DNA of 64,000 nucleotides from a virus (taxonomy: Duplodnaviria > Caudoviricetes): the IMG/VR virus record IMGVR_UViG_3300005719_000009, positions 1 through 64,000 of that record. One strand, given 5' to 3'. Positions 45,426 through 62,908 of this stretch are shown piece by piece (within the stretch, counting starts at the first letter, position 1; every line of letters starts with the position of its first letter). A program made the position numbers and the translations under genes. The notes under the pieces were generated by a model that saw only the letters and a program-made list of their open reading frames with translations, ran no database searches and was not told the DNA's origin.

Positions 45426-46091
45426 TTATGATTTTTGTGTTGTATTACCAGCCCCTATATTATCTTCAATAACATCTTTAGGCATCTTATATCGCTGCGT
45501 CAATTTTTGATACGCTAAATTATAAATGCCTTCTATGGCATCATCTGGCAGATTTAACCGTTCCGTCATAGACGATGTTCGCGTATTCAACATTTCTACA
45601 TATACTGGCATATCAAATAACGGAGTTCCATCGTTCGCGGTAATATAAATAGTCTCACCTCTTATTATGGCCTCTGCCCCTGCCGGTCGAGGCATGTTTT
45701 TTCTATACCCAGCCCTCTTTGTTTTTATAAGAGCTATCTCTTGCCCGATGCCATTCGCGGCATTCGCGAAATATACCCTGCTTATGCTATATCCTAATGG
45801 TAAAGACACAGGCGGCTGAGGCAATGTAGCATACCATTCCCCCGTAACCGCATCTTGAACGAGCGCAGACAAGGCGTATCTTGTCATATATCCATCCGGC
45901 ACTTCCAATGTTCCCAACACCTTAGCCCCGGCGTACACTTGCCCTACTGCATTGTAAGCTAATGCCTGATCAATATGCAACAATGCTTCTTTTTCAGAAA
46001 ACGAAAACTCATCATCTGGGAAATCATTTGCAATGTCTTGTCTCAGCCTTTGAACAAGTAACTTTTTTGTATATGGTATTAATGATGCCAT
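45426..46091 (-). CDS. Tail ring / adaptor protein
   Basis: LP..P..LP.G; position. Confidence 0.55.
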   Translation of the reverse strand: MASLIPYTKKLLVQRLRQDIANDFPDDEFSFSEKEALLHIDQALAYNAVGQVYAGAKVLGTLEVPDGYMTRYALSALVQDAVTGEWYATLPQPPVSLPLGYSISRVYFANAANGIGQEIALIKTKRAGYRKNMPRPAGAEAIIRGETIYITANDGTPLFDMPVYVEMLNTRTSSMTERLNLPDDAIEGIYNLAYQKLTQRYKMPKDVIEDNIGAGNTTQKS

Positions 46092-46762
46092 TAGTTTCCT
46101 GTATTAATTACGCTTTTGCCGTATTGAGTAAAGTCATTGTCGTGGTACGAAACACCAAATGAATCAAGTGTTCTTTTGGTTATTTCAAGGATATCTTCTT
46201 GCATCCATTGCGGCTGCACACTTGCCCCGGAACTATACACTTGCCTTCCTGATACTATCGTGTACCCCCAAACTACATCTGTAGGTGTAGCTATGTAGTC
46301 TATCTCCGCCTCGGTTACAGTTGATGGAAAGAAGGTGTACTTATTTAAGTAAGGCGTATAATAATAACAGTCCTCCGAAATTAATGGCGGATCAATTACA
46401 TTGTCGTTAACAGTAGCTATCTGGTTTTTATTTATATGTAAAACGGCTTTGCCATTTATCCTAAGAGCAAGTAAGTATGAAAAATCAGAAGGTTTAGGCC
46501 CATCACCAGAAGTTATTGTAATAGTGTCATTTTTTGTAAATGGCGATAACTTGGTCTCTATTGTTTCGTTTTCAATTAACCCTGTATTCGCCCCCGACTT
46601 GCCATTGCTCCGGGCCTGAAATCTCCCTTTTAAATCCATAAAATACGCCAACTGCTCACTATTCCACGCATAAAAAAACTCAGTAGCCGACACGCTGCCG
46701 CTTTGATTTTTTCTTAGTAAGAATCTAAGAAACCCATAAAGTTGATCAACATTCCATGCCAT
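46091..46762 (-). CDS. Tail ring / adaptor protein
   Basis: KNQSG.VS..EF; IDYI..P.DV.WGY; position. Confidence 0.6.
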   Translation of the reverse strand: MAWNVDQLYGFLRFLLRKNQSGSVSATEFFYAWNSEQLAYFMDLKGRFQARSNGKSGANTGLIENETIETKLSPFTKNDTITITSGDGPKPSDFSYLLALRINGKAVLHINKNQIATVNDNVIDPPLISEDCYYYTPYLNKYTFFPSTVTEAEIDYIATPTDVVWGYTIVSGRQVYSSGASVQPQWMQEDILEITKRTLDSFGVSYHDNDFTQYGKSVINTGN

Positions 46763-47864: not shown

Positions 47865-49271
47865 TTAAGAAATCAAACCTTTTAATATAGAAAATTGCTC
47901 GGCTGCTGTTACACGTGATCCAACATATGCGATTTGTTCATATTTGTTAGATGCCTCTGTTGTTTTTGTAGGCTTTGTATAACCTAAATCCCAACTGTAA
48001 ATACGCTGTGAAGTTGGTATATCCGGGTTTTGCTGATATACCCATTGCATATAAGGACGCGTAGAACTATCTTTTGCATCCTGTGTCATGCCCTGTGGAA
48101 CGCCAAACCCGAAGTTTGCCCGATAATCGCCTACCGTTGGAGTATACCCGAAAACCGCCTGTGCGGTAAACCCTTTGTAACGGTGAAAGTGGAAGTCAAA
48201 AGTATCAGTAGAGAAACTCTTGAAGCCGTAGCTTACAGAAGCTTCTGCACTTTGCCCTACGCTGCCATAACTTATTGCTCCGTTACGATAAATACCAAAC
48301 AGCAAGTTGTTTATATCCTGCCGTTGCTTTAAATCCTGAAGGAAGTGGTATTCACGTGGGCCACCATTCGCATCTAATACATTGGTGAAATTCTGAAAAT
48401 CGCCAATCATGAAGTTATTTGTCACATAATCCACTTCAGAGCCACGTGCAATTACATCAGGCAAAACCCCCACCGTACCAACGGTGCCGGAAATGTTCGC
48501 GTAAGGCACCCCTTCCATTACAGCATCTTCAATATTCAGCATCATTTGGTCATTCATGGTCTTAACCGCCAAATATGGCAGGTAATAATTACCACCACCA
48601 AAATCAATCTGAGTTTTGTTCATGCCAGCCAAGTCGCTCGCCTTAACAGAAGCACGTGCAACTGTAGCAGTGTTGTCATAACGATACAACTTCTGCTGCT
48701 GTGTGCCCTGACTGTCGGACGCCTCCCCAGCTAACTGATTACCGAAGGTTTCCAGCCCCTCACCAGCCAATACAGTTGTGCCGGTTCCAGAGTGCACAGT
48801 ATATGCCCCCATTGGGGTAAGCTCCAATACAAAGGCACTTGTGGTTCGCGTTACATTGGTAACCTTAAACTTCAAACCATTTGAGCGGAATTTTACCGTC
48901 TGGTTCAAAAGGAACGGCGATTGTGTCCCGGCAGTTCCATCATTATAGGATTGGGGGCTTTTAAGTGTCACATTCACAGCAGCACCACTTGCTCCCTGCG
49001 CAACAGTTGTAGCCACTAAACCAGAACCATAAGGACGGCCCTTTTCAAAATGCGAAAAAGTATTAGTAGTTGTATTTGTTTCCTCGATATTGGTTCTGCC
49101 CAAAATCTCCATTGCCAACATGTACGAGTTGTTACCGTACTTAGCAATAAGACCCGGAATATAATCAGGGATAACAAAATTCAAGTCATTAAAAATACCG
49201 GTTGTTAGCCCGAGTGGATAACCCACCGGGCCGGGCTGACCGGTTGCGCCTCTTACTATAGCACTTGGCAT
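47865..49271 (-). CDS. Major capsid protein (crAss-like type)
   Basis: 468 aa; N-terminal P.....KYGN.S helix; G..GT.G....V..RG; synteny with scaffold, terminase and portal. Confidence 0.8.
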   Translation of the reverse strand: MPSAIVRGATGQPGPVGYPLGLTTGIFNDLNFVIPDYIPGLIAKYGNNSYMLAMEILGRTNIEETNTTTNTFSHFEKGRPYGSGLVATTVAQGASGAAVNVTLKSPQSYNDGTAGTQSPFLLNQTVKFRSNGLKFKVTNVTRTTSAFVLELTPMGAYTVHSGTGTTVLAGEGLETFGNQLAGEASDSQGTQQQKLYRYDNTATVARASVKASDLAGMNKTQIDFGGGNYYLPYLAVKTMNDQMMLNIEDAVMEGVPYANISGTVGTVGVLPDVIARGSEVDYVTNNFMIGDFQNFTNVLDANGGPREYHFLQDLKQRQDINNLLFGIYRNGAISYGSVGQSAEASVSYGFKSFSTDTFDFHFHRYKGFTAQAVFGYTPTVGDYRANFGFGVPQGMTQDAKDSSTRPYMQWVYQQNPDIPTSQRIYSWDLGYTKPTKTTEASNKYEQIAYVGSRVTAAEQFSILKGLIS

Positions 49272-57881: not shown

Positions 57882-58145
57882 ATGGCAAGTAATGTAACCG
57901 CGTTGTTGAACGTGTACCAAATGGATCAATCAGTAATGGATCGTAATGCTCCTAAGAAATTCGCATTCCCAACACAAGGATGCCTGCTTAGTGATTGTTC
58001 CGATTCACCTGCTCGAAGTTTAAGTTCTGGTTATAACGTTTATTCGTTAATAACCGTTCCTTCCAGTGCTGCCGCCAATTCTACCGGGCACCTTTATTAT
58101 GTGGCTGAAACATTGGCCCAATTGGTTACCATCTTCAACGCTTAA
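57882..58145 (+). CDS. Divergent small protein, possibly a virion decoration protein
   Basis: C-terminal YYVAETLAQLV..FNA; has its own terminator. Confidence 0.65.
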   Translation: MASNVTALLNVYQMDQSVMDRNAPKKFAFPTQGCLLSDCSDSPARSLSSGYNVYSLITVPSSAAANSTGHLYYVAETLAQLVTIFNA

Positions 58146-58149
58146 AATT

Positions 58150-58178
58150 AAAAACCGCTCTACTGGGCGGTTTTTTTT
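58150..58178. terminator. Bidirectional intrinsic terminator
   Basis: A5-CCGC-N8-GCGG-T8. Confidence 0.75.
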
Positions 58179-59014
58179 ATTCTTTCCCTAACCTTTTCAT
58201 AGTACTGTTTCGATGTTCCATTTAATTCATGGAAGTAACTCTCTAATCCCTCCTGTGCAAAAAAATCATACGCCTTTTCACCAATAGGAATACAGTTAGG
58301 AGCAGCCCCGCACAATTCTAATATTCTGGGAACCTTTTGCCCTTCCGATAATTGAAATGCCTGCGTTTGGTTTGTAATATGAAACTTGCACTGCTTAATA
58401 GCCTGTGCAAGCTCTAAAAAGTTATTAACATTCAGCTTCCTTATGTTCAGATCATGGGTCATGGTGAACACATTGTATTCGCGCATTGTGCCACAAAACA
58501 ACAAATCGTCTTCATAAGGCTTCAGGAATGAATAGTTGATGTTGTGGTTCAAATACCGCTCTGACCGGGTAATGAGGATTTTACCTTTTGCGAAATCTTT
58601 TTCAGCATCAGGTACATTTAACCATACGCCTGAAAGATCACATGCCATGTCTGGATATACGTAGAAATACCACCGGTTAATCGAAAAAGAAGGCATACCC
58701 ACGTATGTATCTCTGAATGCCCCTAATGGCACTTCAATTTCCTCGCCATCCCATGTTTTAACATCGGCTATACAAGGCTGTTCCATTAGCAGGGGGATCA
58801 TCATATCGATCATTTTTTGATTTAGCATGACCTGCTTACCGTCTTCTGATTTTGTCGGATGCACGGCCCCTTCGTAATATAACGCTGGTATATCCTTGAC
58901 TAAATAAAGAATTATCCTCCTTTTTGTCTTTCTATAAAACTCATTCATTGCTGGTATACTCGCGTGTACGTCACCGATATTTCCCGTGTGGGAGAATGTG
59001 GCTAATTTTTCCAT
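58160..59014 (-). CDS. Glycosyltransferase-like protein (GT-B / GT9-like)
   Basis: H.G.IGD..A.IPA at the N-terminus; L.ELAQAIK.CKF.I.NQ. Confidence 0.55.
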   Translation of the reverse strand: MEKLATFSHTGNIGDVHASIPAMNEFYRKTKRRIILYLVKDIPALYYEGAVHPTKSEDGKQVMLNQKMIDMMIPLLMEQPCIADVKTWDGEEIEVPLGAFRDTYVGMPSFSINRWYFYVYPDMACDLSGVWLNVPDAEKDFAKGKILITRSERYLNHNINYSFLKPYEDDLLFCGTMREYNVFTMTHDLNIRKLNVNNFLELAQAIKQCKFHITNQTQAFQLSEGQKVPRILELCGAAPNCIPIGEKAYDFFAQEGLESYFHELNGTSKQYYEKVRERIKKTAQ

Positions 59015-59637
59015 TTCTTATTTTGCTTTATTTTTTTAATATGTGAAATGCTTACTTTGTATCTTTCTGAAAGTGCCTTATCCGATTCTAATGATGCTCT
59101 TATGTTGTATGCTTGTTGTATCGATAACTTAGTGCTGCTCCTGTTTTGATTATTAACAGAGGCGGTAACAAATGAACATCTTTCAGGAGAGTATAAGTCG
59201 GGCGTTACCCCTAACTGATTAGCTTTAATGTCTTTATCCAATTGAAGTCCTTCCTTCCAGCCGTTTTCTATAGCCCAATTAAAAAACGAAACAAAGTTTT
59301 TATCCCATATATCACAAACACGAACTCCTTTGTCTACGTAATTTTTATGTGATGCATGATTTTTGCTCCTGCATCTTGCCTTCATGCCCTTCCAGACATC
59401 GTACAAGGGATGTTCCCTGTACTCGAAAGTAGTTCTTGGCGTTCTATTACAACCGCAACTTTTCCAATGCCCCCTATTCAACTCATAGCCAACAACTATC
59501 TTTTCATTCCCACAATCGCATAAACAAAGAAACCTTGTTGCCTTGTTATTTGATGGCATCTTTTCTTTTACTAAAAGCATTCCGAATCTTTGGCCGATCA
59601 GGTCAAGTCTTTTGGGGCCTCCCTTATTCACCATCAC
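59002..59637 (-). CDS. HNH-type homing endonuclease
   Basis: GQRFG.L.V; CLCDCG; SCGC; W..MK.RC; LDKD..; YSPE.C..V....N..N. Confidence 0.8.
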   Translation of the reverse strand: MMVNKGGPKRLDLIGQRFGMLLVKEKMPSNNKATRFLCLCDCGNEKIVVGYELNRGHWKSCGCNRTPRTTFEYREHPLYDVWKGMKARCRSKNHASHKNYVDKGVRVCDIWDKNFVSFFNWAIENGWKEGLQLDKDIKANQLGVTPDLYSPERCSFVTASVNNQNRSSTKLSIQQAYNIRASLESDKALSERYKVSISHIKKIKQNKKWKN

Positions 59638-59870
59638 TGAATATCTTTAATCAGCCACAAATATATTTCTTCTGCGTTTTCCAATAACGTACTTGTTACA
59701 TGAGCCTGACCGGTGCTTTGGGCGTACTGAACAGCTAATTTTCTACAGGCAATTTTTTCTATATTAACCCATAATTCGTGTTGTGCTTTTTGGTTGCTTT
59801 TTGAAATTTCTTCTGGTGTCATATTTTTATTTTTTGATGTTCTTAATTTCCGTTGCCGTCTTTGAAACAC
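59634..59870 (-). CDS. Hypothetical protein
   Basis: Packed ORF. Confidence 0.55.
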   Translation of the reverse strand: MFQRRQRKLRTSKNKNMTPEEISKSNQKAQHELWVNIEKIACRKLAVQYAQSTGQAHVTSTLLENAEEIYLWLIKDIQ

Positions 59871-60106
59871 TCATATAATTTAGGATTTTCTGTTTTGTCT
59901 TTTTTTAATAATTCATATTCATCTGTCCAATTAATATTACCATACTTTTCAATCAGCTTAGGCATATAATCTGGCACAATAAAATTCATGTTCTGAAGTA
60001 GATTCCTTGTGTTTGGTACTCCCGGTGGCTTTACCTGAAGCTGAGTAATAATATCTGGTGCCACCACAATCATAACTATTTGCCTCAAAAAACTACCTCT
60101 ATTCAT
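59843..60106 (-). CDS. 87-aa protein with an MCP N-terminal motif copy and a Tat-like N-terminus
   Basis: NMNFIVPDYMPKLIEKYGN versus MCP DLNFVIPDYIPGLIAKYGN. Confidence 0.7.
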   Translation of the reverse strand: MNRGSFLRQIVMIVVAPDIITQLQVKPPGVPNTRNLLQNMNFIVPDYMPKLIEKYGNINWTDEYELLKKDKTENPKLYECFKDGNGN

Positions 60107-61140
60107 GCTGGTATTTTTTGATGATTAGGTAATGTTTCGTAAAGTTGTTCCGGGATGGTTTGCTTTATTTTAGCAACATCCGAATCATTAAGCTGCGTAT
60201 CGTGATATGCAGATATTGCCCATAAATGCGTTAACCCATTCTCCATAATCGTTCTTTCCTGTTGTTGTCTTTCTTTTCCCGGCAACCATCTAACCTCTGT
60301 TGGGATATTATAAATCTTTTTATTATTTGCCAATAACCAATAGTTAAACCATTGGCCCGGTTCGTACCCAATTCTGTATATTATTTTTGCCCGATTATCC
60401 AATAGTAAATTCGGAACATCATCAGAGTATGTTCGTTGCCCATATGTTCTTACTGATTCCTGTAATCTTCCCATGCCGTTATGCATAGGCCCGACAACAG
60501 GCATGTAGTGAGTAGCCTTTTGCTCTGCCTTCTGCGGGAAATATGGTTTATATCCTTCAGACAACTCAATATAATCTTCCGGGCAAATCAAAAAGTTATT
60601 GACTATGCTTTTATGAACCATAATATGGCAAGCAAAAGACTCCTTCATAGCCATATTCGGGAAATAAAAATACTCTATATTTTTGCAATACAAAGCTGCT
60701 TCAAGCCATGCGCCTCTTCTGTATAATGCACCTGCCGGATGCATATAAGCGCCACCAGATAATTCAAGGTGAGAACCAGCAGCATCACAACCAGAGTCTA
60801 TGAATTGCAAATAATAATCCAGCCAACCTTCCTTAGTTGGGAAGCTATCGCTCTCCATGCATATAACCCATTCATTGGAGGCCATTTCAAATAGCACATC
60901 ATACCCTATGCCATGTGATTGCAGCTTATCTTTAGGATACGGGAACACGGTTATTTGATCTTTGAATGGTTCAAGATATTTTATACTCCCATCATCTGCG
61001 TTGTTGTCGCATATGAGTATTTCAATGTCATGATCGCCTTTATACTTTAATATTTGCGCAACAGTATAGGCTGTCATTTTGCCTGTCTTCCAGTGGCATA
61101 AAATTATGCTAAACTTCATTTTATGTTTATTTTTTTTCAA
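60103..61140 (-). CDS. Glycosyltransferase family 2 (GT-A)
   Basis: FSII.C....; EILICDN..DDGS; ESD (DxD-like). Confidence 0.8.
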   Translation of the reverse strand: MKKNKHKMKFSIILCHWKTGKMTAYTVAQILKYKGDHDIEILICDNNADDGSIKYLEPFKDQITVFPYPKDKLQSHGIGYDVLFEMASNEWVICMESDSFPTKEGWLDYYLQFIDSGCDAAGSHLELSGGAYMHPAGALYRRGAWLEAALYCKNIEYFYFPNMAMKESFACHIMVHKSIVNNFLICPEDYIELSEGYKPYFPQKAEQKATHYMPVVGPMHNGMGRLQESVRTYGQRTYSDDVPNLLLDNRAKIIYRIGYEPGQWFNYWLLANNKKIYNIPTEVRWLPGKERQQQERTIMENGLTHLWAISAYHDTQLNDSDVAKIKQTIPEQLYETLPNHQKIPA

Positions 61141-61438
61141 CTACCCATTTGTACCCGTCATAATCAAATGTAATAGCAGTTACATCTGGCCATGAAACAA
61201 CCTTATACGTGTTTAACGATTCAGCATATTTAACAAACTCTTCATATTCTATGCCTGTAAGATACAATCTCGACATGAATGAGGCCGGAGCGCCAGCATA
61301 GTCCAATATTCTCGCATACGCTTTCAATAAACCAGAGCAACTAATTTCACCAGTAAATGAATTATCTGTGTATAAATCATTGCTTTTAAAGAATGCCAAC
61401 AATCTTCTGCAATTTTCAATAATTGTCTCTCTGGTCAT
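61127..61438 (-). CDS. Hypothetical protein
   Basis: Packed ORF. Confidence 0.55.
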   Translation of the reverse strand: MTRETIIENCRRLLAFFKSNDLYTDNSFTGEISCSGLLKAYARILDYAGAPASFMSRLYLTGIEYEEFVKYAESLNTYKVVSWPDVTAITFDYDGYKWVVEKK

Positions 61439-61439
61439 T

Positions 61440-62261
61440 TTAATTTTTTTTGCCTAAAAAAAGAGGGTTCCCTTGATACTCAATTCCAATATTGCTTTCA
61501 AATCTTTGTTTTTCAAATTCGTTATTTGAATAAATGTCTTTTAGATACATATTCTTATCTCGTCTCTCAAACGCAGCATATCTATCCCCTTTTTTAAGCA
61601 AGCGTTCCTTCATGCTGTTATAGTTTTCAGTTGCGAATTTTACCCACCCCGGATCGGTACCCCCTAAGTTATCTATATCATCTACAATAGACATGTAATT
61701 TTTAAAATACACAATCTCCTTTACATCGTTAAAAACTTGCGCTTTAAATGAATTATCCATGTCTTTTTCCAAATCTGCCATACGAAACGCCGCCTTATGG
61801 TATGGCCTAAAATCGCTGTACCCTATAGGTACCAAAGATTCATGTATTCTGCCTGACCATTTCAATTCGTGTCTGTTATAGAATCTAAACCATCTATGCG
61901 GATCGGTAGCGTGATCAAAGTAATAACAATTGTAATCAGGGCATACAATATTCAAAATGCCATTATCTTTTTCAATAATTTCACTTGTATTCAAATACAG
62001 GATAGTACTATTAAATGCCCACCCTGCCAAAATATTAAGTATTGAGCTAAACCCGTTATGGAAGATATAGTCGAATGGAACTGGTATTATTTTCAAGTTG
62101 AATATGTGACGATAAGATTGCAATATCTCTCTATCTTCATCAAAAAGAAGCATATCGCCATATACTATTTCGTCGCATATTGTTGACAATGATTCGAATG
62201 TTTTCCTTAGAACCTTAACATTGCCACATCCCATCGTAATTCCAGTAATACCTGTTTTCAT
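61440..62261 (-). CDS. GT2-like glycosyltransferase
   Basis: L.K..ES...ICDEIV..D; R.Y......W.G.IHE.L. Confidence 0.65.
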   Translation of the reverse strand: MKTGITGITMGCGNVKVLRKTFESLSTICDEIVYGDMLLFDEDREILQSYRHIFNLKIIPVPFDYIFHNGFSSILNILAGWAFNSTILYLNTSEIIEKDNGILNIVCPDYNCYYFDHATDPHRWFRFYNRHELKWSGRIHESLVPIGYSDFRPYHKAAFRMADLEKDMDNSFKAQVFNDVKEIVYFKNYMSIVDDIDNLGGTDPGWVKFATENYNSMKERLLKKGDRYAAFERRDKNMYLKDIYSNNEFEKQRFESNIGIEYQGNPLFLGKKN

Positions 62262-62908
62262 TTTACATCTTTAAATTTAACGTATAAACGACAATTGTCA
62301 TCAAAGTGCCTTTTGGGAATAAACCCCTTCATGCACATCAAAAGGTCAAATGAATGGTGCGAGAAGATAGTGCTATGACCGGCTTCGGGGGCCAAATATA
62401 CATAATCTTCAAGTTCAACATTATCTCTTTTTGCTACATCCAGAAAGCCGGTTTCAAAATATGCGAGGCCACCCATAACCAATGAACGATTAATAACATC
62501 CAACTCCATGAACGGGCTGCTGCAATGTTCAATACACTCTACGCAAGTAACAACATGAAATTTGTTTTTTTCGGGCAGCTTTATGAAATCTTCATTGTAG
62601 GCATCATATCCAACGGCATTATATCCAGCTTTATTCAAGTCATTAACAAGCCATCCATAACCGCAGCCAAAATCAAGAACATGAACATCTTCTTTTTTTA
62701 TGCCGTTGGTCATAGTAGCTATACGATCTATGCGTATTGGATTTTGGGTTACATTTCTGCCTTCGTGATGTTGCCCACCTACTAACCCTGTTTGATCAAT
62801 AGGGTCACTAAAAACAACCTTACAGGATTCGCATTGGCAATACTCTGTGTTTTGTTTTACAATTCTTAAAGGGGCCGGATTATTGCAAATAGGACAATTT
62901 TTTTTCAT
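62258..62908 (-). CDS. Class I SAM-dependent methyltransferase with N-terminal Zn ribbon
   Basis: CPIC...CESC; VLDFGCG.G; FHVVTC.E.IEH. Confidence 0.85.
   Translation of the reverse strand: MKKNCPICNNPAPLRIVKQNTEYCQCESCKVVFSDPIDQTGLVGGQHHEGRNVTQNPIRIDRIATMTNGIKKEDVHVLDFGCGYGWLVNDLNKAGYNAVGYDAYNEDFIKLPEKNKFHVVTCVECIEHCSSPFMELDVINRSLVMGGLAYFETGFLDVAKRDNVELEDYVYLAPEAGHSTIFSHHSFDLLMCMKGFIPKRHFDDNCRLYVKFKDVK

Follow-up and report, generated by a model that had tools for sequence, protein, structure and literature searches.

The internal proteins of phage T4 share a short conserved N-terminal capsid-targeting leader that precedes different payloads, with head-protease sites of the form hydrophobic-x-acidic, and the N-terminal arms of major capsid proteins (MCPs) bind the scaffold in P22, 80alpha and SPP1. 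Competition at the scaffold/MCP N-arm interface has been described for CpmB of SaPI1, a small accessory protein that shares a motif with a capsid-assembly protein, the 80alpha scaffold (PMC5744158). CpmB copies the C-terminus of the scaffold, is encoded by a satellite and redirects capsid size. RiPP precursors, for example the GT2-modified glycocins, are small peptide genes among tailoring enzymes and join a conserved leader to an exchangeable core. Tat signal peptides begin with RRxFLK, followed by a hydrophobic stretch and a proline.

Here we describe a small gene in a 64,000-nucleotide stretch of Caudoviricetes DNA (positions 1 to 64,000 of IMG/VR record IMGVR_UViG_3300005719_000009; hereafter the window) whose product resembles parts of these systems. 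Like CpmB, it shares a motif with a capsid-assembly protein and could compete at the N-arm interface. Unlike CpmB, to which it has no sequence relation, it copies the MCP arm itself, is encoded by the phage, carries a separate leader and lies in a sugar operon. As with the T4 targeting sequence, the leader is common to several small proteins with different payloads and often has a hydrophobic-x-acidic end. It is however longer and more hydrophobic than the T4 sequence, and the payload is an MCP copy rather than unrelated cargo. The conserved leader, the variable core and the position of the gene among tailoring enzymes are all as expected of a RiPP precursor, whereas the core keeps an MCP motif under purifying selection and most relatives have the operon without the peptide. 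No leader peptidase, exporter or leader-recognition element was found by Pfam scans of the neighbouring genes, which returned kinase, nucleotidyltransferase, epimerase, glycosyltransferase (GT) and methyltransferase (MT) domains only and left several neighbours unassigned.

Homology of a small gene to the MCP N-terminus

A 468-residue protein of the window matches phrog_13704, a virion structural protein, and the head genes are ordered portal (phrog_6547), large terminase TerL (phrog_6681), a 399-aa scaffold-like gene and then this gene. The nearest cultured relatives, at 25% identity, are capsid or structural proteins of the Cellulophaga phages Calle_1, phi38:1 and phi40:1 (Pervagoviridae), and the Calle_1 protein is annotated as a major capsid protein. 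From the PHROG match, the gene order and these homologues, the 468-residue protein is likely the MCP. Its sequence found no match in the PDB.

The small gene lies about 10 kb away on the same strand (Table 1). Residues 24–69 of its product align with MCP residues 12–59 (19 of 48 identical, BLASTP E 7e-10), and within this segment the core motif NMNFIVPDYMPKLIEKYGN agrees with DLNFVIPDYIPGLIAKYGN of the MCP (residues 29–47) at 12 of 19 positions. This confirms the motif copy reported by the first-pass annotation and extends the homology well beyond it. Profile-profile comparison with hhalign aligned columns 35–115 of the small-protein family with MCP residues 21–104 (98.8% probability, E 4.5e-17), and the family profile found the MCP N-terminus in 38 of 38 related phage records with E values of 1e-14 to 1e-18. 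By these sequence and profile comparisons the likeness is real and beyond chance.

Of the 12 identical residues of the motif, 5 are encoded by different codons, and of the 19 in the full alignment, 9 are. The earlier statement that most shared codons differ synonymously is thus overstated, while its conclusion of selection at the protein level holds: the two copies are 54% identical in nucleotides, and phage L096 gives a similar picture, with 23 of 30 residues identical between small protein and own MCP and 11 codons identical. Recent gene conversion from the MCP gene is ruled out because nucleotide identity is 54% in the window (54–77% overall), and about half of the shared residues have other codons.

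Table 1. Positions in the window of the small gene, its operon and the related structural genes (strand given as + or −; a dot marks a feature without strand)
Feature	Position	Strand	Basis or remark
223-aa virion structural protein	46091–46762	−	phrog_14543
MCP gene, 468 aa (likely)	47865–49271	−	phrog_13704, gene order, cultured homologues
MCP residues 12–59, the stretch copied in the small protein	49095–49238	−	BLASTP, profile, hhalign
GC-rich hairpin, 11 bp, T/A runs on both sides	58150–58175	.	consensus match only
284-aa protein, conserved operon partner	58160–59014	−	homologues beside the small gene in L026, L090, L138, G025
Inserted 78-aa ORF and HNH endonuclease, between small ORF and 284-aa gene	59002–59870	−	phrog_374, E 2.8e-47
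Small ORF, 87 aa, leader and MCP-N-arm family member	59843–60106	−	ORF reading, family profile
MCP-like segment, residues 24–69, homologous to MCP 12–59	59900–60037	−	BLASTP, hhalign
Core motif, residues 39–57	59936–59992	−	12/19 identical to MCP 29–47
Leader, residues 1–23 (MNRGSFLRQIVMIVVAPDIITQL), conserved, exchangeable N-terminal helix	60038–60106	−	column counts, AF2
GT2 gene, stop overlapping the small ORF start	60103–61140	−	PF00535, E 2.2e-8; same neighbour in L026, L027
Upstream operon genes: SAM methyltransferase (216 aa), 273-aa protein, 103-aa protein	61127–62908	−	Methyltransf_23 (PF13489), E 8.6e-17

Two relatives were found first by a word-based search. Their gene calls omit the leader, which a six-frame reading locates in frame as MKRASFLKS in one and, with a GTG start, as VKRSSFLKS in the other. 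A six-member profile was then searched against 1.84 billion representative proteins, and 118 clusters were recovered at E 1e-3 or better, 59 of them at 1e-10 or better; the members of this family are nearly all 60–115 aa long and align from residue 1. Column counts were taken on 83 members. The 23-residue leader has the consensus M-x-R-x-S-F-h-K-S-L-h5-A-P-K-h-h-A-E-h (in short, MxRxSFxKSL-hydrophobic-APKxxAE), with R3 and K/R8 in all 83, F6 in 72, S9 in 68 and P17 in 81. After a variable spacer the payload reads L-F-x-D-L-[NQ]-h-h-x-P-x-Y-Y-x-x-h-h-E-K-Y-G, in which K is found in 79 of the 83 members, Y in 81, G in 76 and P in 73. Many members run on into F-x-H-[FY]-E and some into E-P-V-T-I-T-I, corresponding to TFSHFEKGR and VSVTLKSP of the MCP. 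The ratio dN/dS is 0.18–0.27 for the window gene against its orthologues, 0.20 for the unsaturated pair G008/L102 (dS 0.41) and 0.18–0.28 for other pairs. The small gene is thus, on its substitution pattern, a selected protein-coding gene under purifying selection (dN/dS about 0.2).

The family is widespread and undescribed. Searches of Pfam and NCBIfam gave nothing significant. PHROG 33011, of unknown function, was matched by 10 of the 83 members (best E 3e-5), the window protein not being among them. No member was found in a 50,697-record collection of cultured phages, phi38:1 gave a weak MCP match only, the genomes of bacterial and archaeal species scanned by pattern yielded none, and scans of IMG/VR and JGI with sub-alignments returned few loci. 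A 72.7-kb phage-like contig, binned with a genome of Agriterribacter (Bacteroidota), encodes one member, which the deposited record calls a hypothetical protein. The first-pass annotation knew of no described equivalent, and we likewise found none in Pfam, NCBIfam, the PDB or the literature searched; the sole PHROG matched has no named function.

The small protein covers MCP residues of about 21–104 alone, and its 87 residues do not amount to a complete HK97 fold with N-arm, E-loop, P and A domains. AF2 with the family alignment modelled it as all-helical without a compact fold (pLDDT 75, pTM 0.26), the most confident part being the leader, a helix with a block pLDDT of 86. The model of the MCP (pLDDT 46) was too poor to place the arm in the fold.

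The leader and its payloads

The leader has the n-h-c organisation of a signal peptide, with basic residues R3 and K8, a hydrophobic core and Pro17, and in 56 of 83 members the sequence agrees with P-x-[IVLAM]-x-[ASGT] plus a polar residue, as a Sec-type cleavage site would. In the window copy the putative cleavage site reads T-Q and lacks a small residue. The longest uncharged run in the leader is 7–11 residues (median 8), at the lower length limit for a signal-peptide core, and the best 19-residue hydropathy window falls below 1.6 in 69 of 83 members.

The start of the window protein, MNRGSFLRQ, had been described as a degenerate Tat-like or amphipathic leader. It turns out to be the start of the conserved family leader, and its likeness to Tat signals is one of resemblance only. 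In a minority of members (e.g. MNRRSLIKS...) the leader start does fit RRxFLK, followed by the hydrophobic stretch and the proline. The family mostly has a single arginine: position 4 is R in 13 of 83, S in 32, G in 18 and K in 13, the window protein having R-G. The hydrophobic region of a Tat signal spans roughly 12–20 residues, compared to 7–11 here. The Tat_signal model PF10518 was touched by one of 83 members at E 0.11, the NCBIfam Tat models, TIGR01409 among them, gave no match, and language-model neighbours with Tat signals scored 0.80–0.83, within the chance range. A true Tat signal is thus unsupported, with the second arginine rare, the core short and the Tat models unmatched.

The leader is not derived from the MCP. 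An origin in another phage protein was also considered, and a regular-expression search of all loci returned this family only. The same leader stands in front of unrelated payloads, in a 97-aa ORF in G005, a second ORF in L092, cluster P0113 and others. In three clusters (P0098, P0118 and P0121) it precedes a copy of a different part of the MCP, residues of about 260–310 (GLIPTIL...PGxFTLKDFND, compared to GVLPDV...FMIGDFQNF in the MCP). These payloads matched both MCP types described below by pairwise BLASTP at E 2e-6 to 7e-4, and in each of three proteomes the MCP was the top match of a profile built from the three sequences, each time at one and the same place, with E values of 0.003–0.03. 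Conversely, the arm motif occurs behind other N-termini, namely a beta-rich module in G004, P0107 and P0111 and basic stretches in G028, P0059, P0100 and P0110. A proteome-wide search with the payloads gave 452 real hits, of which all but a few fell on MCPs or family members, against 8 hits in a shuffled-payload control run with five times the queries; the payloads did not match the 399-aa scaffold-like protein in this search but matched the MCP instead. On these sequence arrangements the leader is a module in its own right.

Three further observations concern leader and tail variants. In L092 a second small ORF (L092:2147-2425) lies 1.3 kb downstream of the family member and joins a truer Tat-like leader (MDRRNFFRSLMGGALAGSF) to an unrelated payload. 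In L133 and L134 (genomes G032 and G031) a 38-codon ORF just before a GroES-like gene consists of leader and spacer alone (MNRRFLIKGILTLVAAPKILSEIDFKPPLVMKAGATIL) and forms its own cluster, P0108; from its sequence it may be either a truncated member or a leader-only peptide. The tail of the G025-type protein (LTADQFQNTWNKSQLEYFDKLKSNGNENKNI; L025:6001-6282) weakly resembles residues 19–59 of the 223-aa virion protein of Table 1: with a profile, the top-ranked proteins of three genomes were its orthologues, matched at one and the same place (E 0.004), and BLAST scores were at the noise level of the shuffled control. This weak likeness, which could be due to chance, was the only payload signal to a virion protein other than the MCP.

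Operon context, distribution and cassette exchange

In 14 of 16 independent contexts a sugar/glycosyltransferase/methyltransferase operon located between the replication and head modules encloses the small gene. In the window the head module follows shortly downstream, on the same strand. The exceptions to operon membership, G008/L102 and L092, carry the small gene among small ORFs without recognisable enzymes. The phages that have the operon are divergent, with MCPs about 30% identical, and gene order varies among the contexts; in most of them the start or stop of the small gene overlaps an enzyme gene by 1–30 nt. The link to flanking glycosyltransferases drawn by the first-pass annotation is thus stronger than could be told from the window alone, the small gene being found inside such operons in very different phages.

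The window operon runs methyltransferase (PF13489), 273-aa gene, 103-aa gene, GT2 (PF00535), small gene, the inserted 78-aa ORF and HNH gene, 284-aa gene and hairpin. The ATG of the small gene overlaps the TGA of the GT2 gene as ATGA, and the synteny of the methyltransferase, 273-aa and 103-aa genes is kept in relatives. GT2 followed by the small gene is also found in L026 and L027. L094/L103 have DUF5672/GT9, a 111-aa gene, a 63-aa gene, the small gene and Methyltransf_24, and L096, L097 and G026 have the same gene families in shuffled order. The small gene is flanked by two weak GT2-like genes in G022. In L137 the order is PfkB kinase, small gene, 100-aa gene, cytidylyltransferase-like, cupin, GT34-like, GT_PLOD and two methyltransferases, and in L138 it is a 284-aa homologue, small gene, NAD epimerase, DUF5672/GT9, methyltransferases and GT2. 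The 284-aa protein itself gave a sub-threshold PS_pyruv_trans match (E 0.014); its assignment as a GT9 enzyme was unsupported by Pfam and by a PDB profile search.

No terminator-like site was found inside the window operon on the minus strand. The hairpin, placed where the 284-aa gene and a plus-strand ORF (57882–58145) converge, is the only terminator-like site closing the operon and, by consensus, is likely a two-way terminator. In relatives, HNH genes are found elsewhere in the same region (before GT2, before GroEL or before the portal), and from this placement they look like freestanding homing endonucleases moving within the module.

The small gene is an accessory gene. Its full form is found in the window and in 2 of 24 related IMG/VR records, in one of seven complete genomes of the window's clade, and in 3 of 13 records of a second clade, where truncated, leader-only and payload-only variants occur as well. 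Between GT2 and the 284-aa gene, phages of the window's clade have the small gene, unrelated ORFs of 95–98 aa, a 209-aa gene, an HNH gene or nothing. Its middle cassette is swapped between phages. G025 and G027 have MCPs 99% identical and flanks 99–100% identical in DNA, and leader and tail of their small genes are near-identical, whereas a middle cassette of about 160 nt, containing spacer and motif, is about 50% identical. A related observation comes from L104 (G005:35800-37519) and L105 (G004:1-2400), in which the position ahead of the 273-aa gene is occupied by different small ORFs although the flanks are 96–99% identical: in G005 the family leader with an unrelated 70-aa payload, in G004 a beta-rich N-terminus followed by the MCP-arm motif (LMADLQQMTTQYLDNLSKKYG).

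Two MCP lineages about 30% identical were sampled, and ten genomes gave both genes. The first MCP type, that of the window, reads DLNFVIPDYIPGLIAKYGN..Y.L..E.LG and the second NLQLLTPQYYKQFVEKYG..W.WWL. Payloads of the window, G008 and G022 match the first type and those of G026, G027, G028 and L096 the second. G025 and L103 have a second-type MCP with a first-type payload, and L139 is intermediate, so that payload type equals own MCP type in 7 of 10 pairs with three mismatches. The summed score against the own MCP exceeded that of permuted pairings (p ~0.02, from ten pairs that are related to one another), and a 2x2 test on nine pairs gave p 0.12. By this comparison the payload tracks its cognate MCP by type, in a real but loose manner. 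The expectation that the motif follows the cognate MCP is therefore borne out at the level of type in the seven pairs and fails for G025, L103 and L139, whose payloads are nearer to another MCP lineage.

Candidate roles of the small protein

We tentatively suggest that the small protein is a mimic of an MCP segment that serves the co-transcribed sugar-modifying enzymes, an explanation we rate as possible and still short of probable. The protein would be a two-module accessory factor, a conserved hydrophobic leader joined to a selected copy of the MCP N-terminal arm, and would substitute for the MCP segment within the sugar-modification operon. It might do so as a leader-tagged surrogate acceptor, or as an adaptor through which the glycosyl- and methyltransferases of the operon reach the MCP arm or an arm-binding surface. 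On this view the partners of the real MCP segment would also bind the payload, the leader would serve either to engage the enzymes or to localise the protein, and virion proteins would be the substrates of the operon. A role in the sugar pathway is ranked first because operon membership is the one feature kept across all lineages and gene orders. The MCP homology preserved by selection under different codons, the modular build and the agreement of payload with MCP type in 7 of 10 pairs also speak for it. Against it, most close relatives have the GT/MT operon but no small gene, which is missing from six of the seven complete genomes of the window's clade, and therefore the enzymes can do without it. 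G008/L102 and L092, conversely, have the small gene without recognisable enzymes around it, and the payloads of G025, L103 and L139 fit another MCP lineage better than their own. The operon is also the usual occupant of this genome region, so part of the linkage could be inherited synteny. As to candidate glycosylation residues, 44 of 83 members have a Thr or Ser shortly before the motif, and no other residue stands out; N-x-S/T sequons after KYG, read by eye, are not conserved.

Several other explanations bear on the same observations. The arm copy may bind the N-arm site on the scaffold or on a neighbouring MCP subunit as an assembly competitor or docking peptide, and so either tune assembly or deliver the leader, as a targeting tag, to the procapsid. 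What is copied is the MCP arm, conserved at the same residues as in MCPs, and long forms extend to MCP residue 104; payload type agrees with that of the MCP in most pairs, the gene lies next to the head module on the same strand, and both the scaffold binding of MCP N-arms and the competition by CpmB (PMC5744158) set out above fit with such a role. The leader often ends in [IL]-x-[ED], as at T4 head-protease sites, with E or D after [IL]-x in 54 of 83 members, but no prohead protease was recognised among the head genes. Near-identical phages moreover do without the small gene, the 99% identical MCPs of G025 and G027 go with different cassettes, and the MCP model is too poor to locate the arm, and we consider a role in assembly unlikely. 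The sporadic distribution, the replacement of cassettes between phages that are otherwise about 99% identical and the presence of several different MCP segments behind one leader would be expected if the protein were a decoy or blocker of a bacterial immune sensor, or of a competing phage, that recognises MCP segments, with the leader holding or localising the complex. Many defence systems are triggered by MCPs (reviewed in PMC13728456). A copy of the trigger is however expected to activate the sensor rather than silence it, no such decoy is described in the literature searched, the gene lies in an enzyme operon and not in an early or anti-defence island, and the mismatched payloads of G025 and L103 would not shield their own MCPs. 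A decoy of this kind is in our judgement improbable.

If the leader were instead a short Sec- or Tat-type signal, the protein would be exported or membrane-associated, with an envelope role such as superinfection exclusion or lysis control. Its n-h-c organisation, the P-x-[IVL]-x-[ASGT]-polar pattern in 56 members, the RRxFLK-like form of a minority and the weak language-model neighbours with Tat signals are consistent with export. The short uncharged core, low hydropathy, rare second arginine and all but unmatched Tat models (a single member at E 0.11 to PF10518) argue against it, as do the missing small residue at the putative cleavage site of the window copy and the absence of any apparent reason for an MCP arm in the periplasm. 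We therefore regard export as quite improbable. A non-functional remnant of a duplicated MCP 5' end, or a fragment carried along by the HNH endonuclease, might be suspected from the HNH gene 206 nt downstream of the small gene in the window. The latter is ruled out by L026, where the small ORF occupies the same slot and abuts the 284-aa homologue without any HNH insertion. The 118 clusters with full-length architecture, the dN/dS of about 0.2 and a conserved leader that is not MCP-derived make a remnant of any kind extremely unlikely. The comparisons thus exclude a dead fragment and fit a modular stand-in for MCP segments.

More broadly, phages of this group may carry exchangeable, leader-tagged mini-copies of their own virion proteins, taken from the MCP arm, from an internal part of the MCP and perhaps from the N-terminus of the 223-aa protein. 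These would act as capsid stand-ins, be it to decoy capsid-sensing immunity or rival phages or to give a glycosylation machine a handle on its target, with cassettes swapped in an arms race; we hold this wider proposal to be doubtful. If the small proteins do stand in for the capsid protein, annotation would have missed a piece of phage biology in which small, fast-evolving genes are built from parts of structural proteins. A partner in the phage's own sugar pathway would, to our knowledge, give the first clue to how Bacteroidota phages choose the virion proteins to be modified, and a partner in the host or in a rival phage would make the small protein a decoy for capsid sensors. With 118 clusters and an easily recognised leader, the family can also be used as a marker, and it leads to a prediction on what binds the most conserved stretch of the MCP.

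Two contigs bear on the phages that carry the family. On the 72.7-kb Agriterribacter-binned contig (L137/L139) the operon, which includes Methyltransf_21 and Methyltransf_24, lies just before the terminase, portal and MCP genes, and this contig suggests Chitinophagaceae as hosts of some phages of the group. L103, of the second MCP clade, has downstream of its head genes a gene (L103:16482-20357) for a 1331-aa protein whose C-terminal domain is of the crAss muzzle type (PF25729). By this domain the phages are placed near the crAss-like and Pervagoviridae podoviruses.
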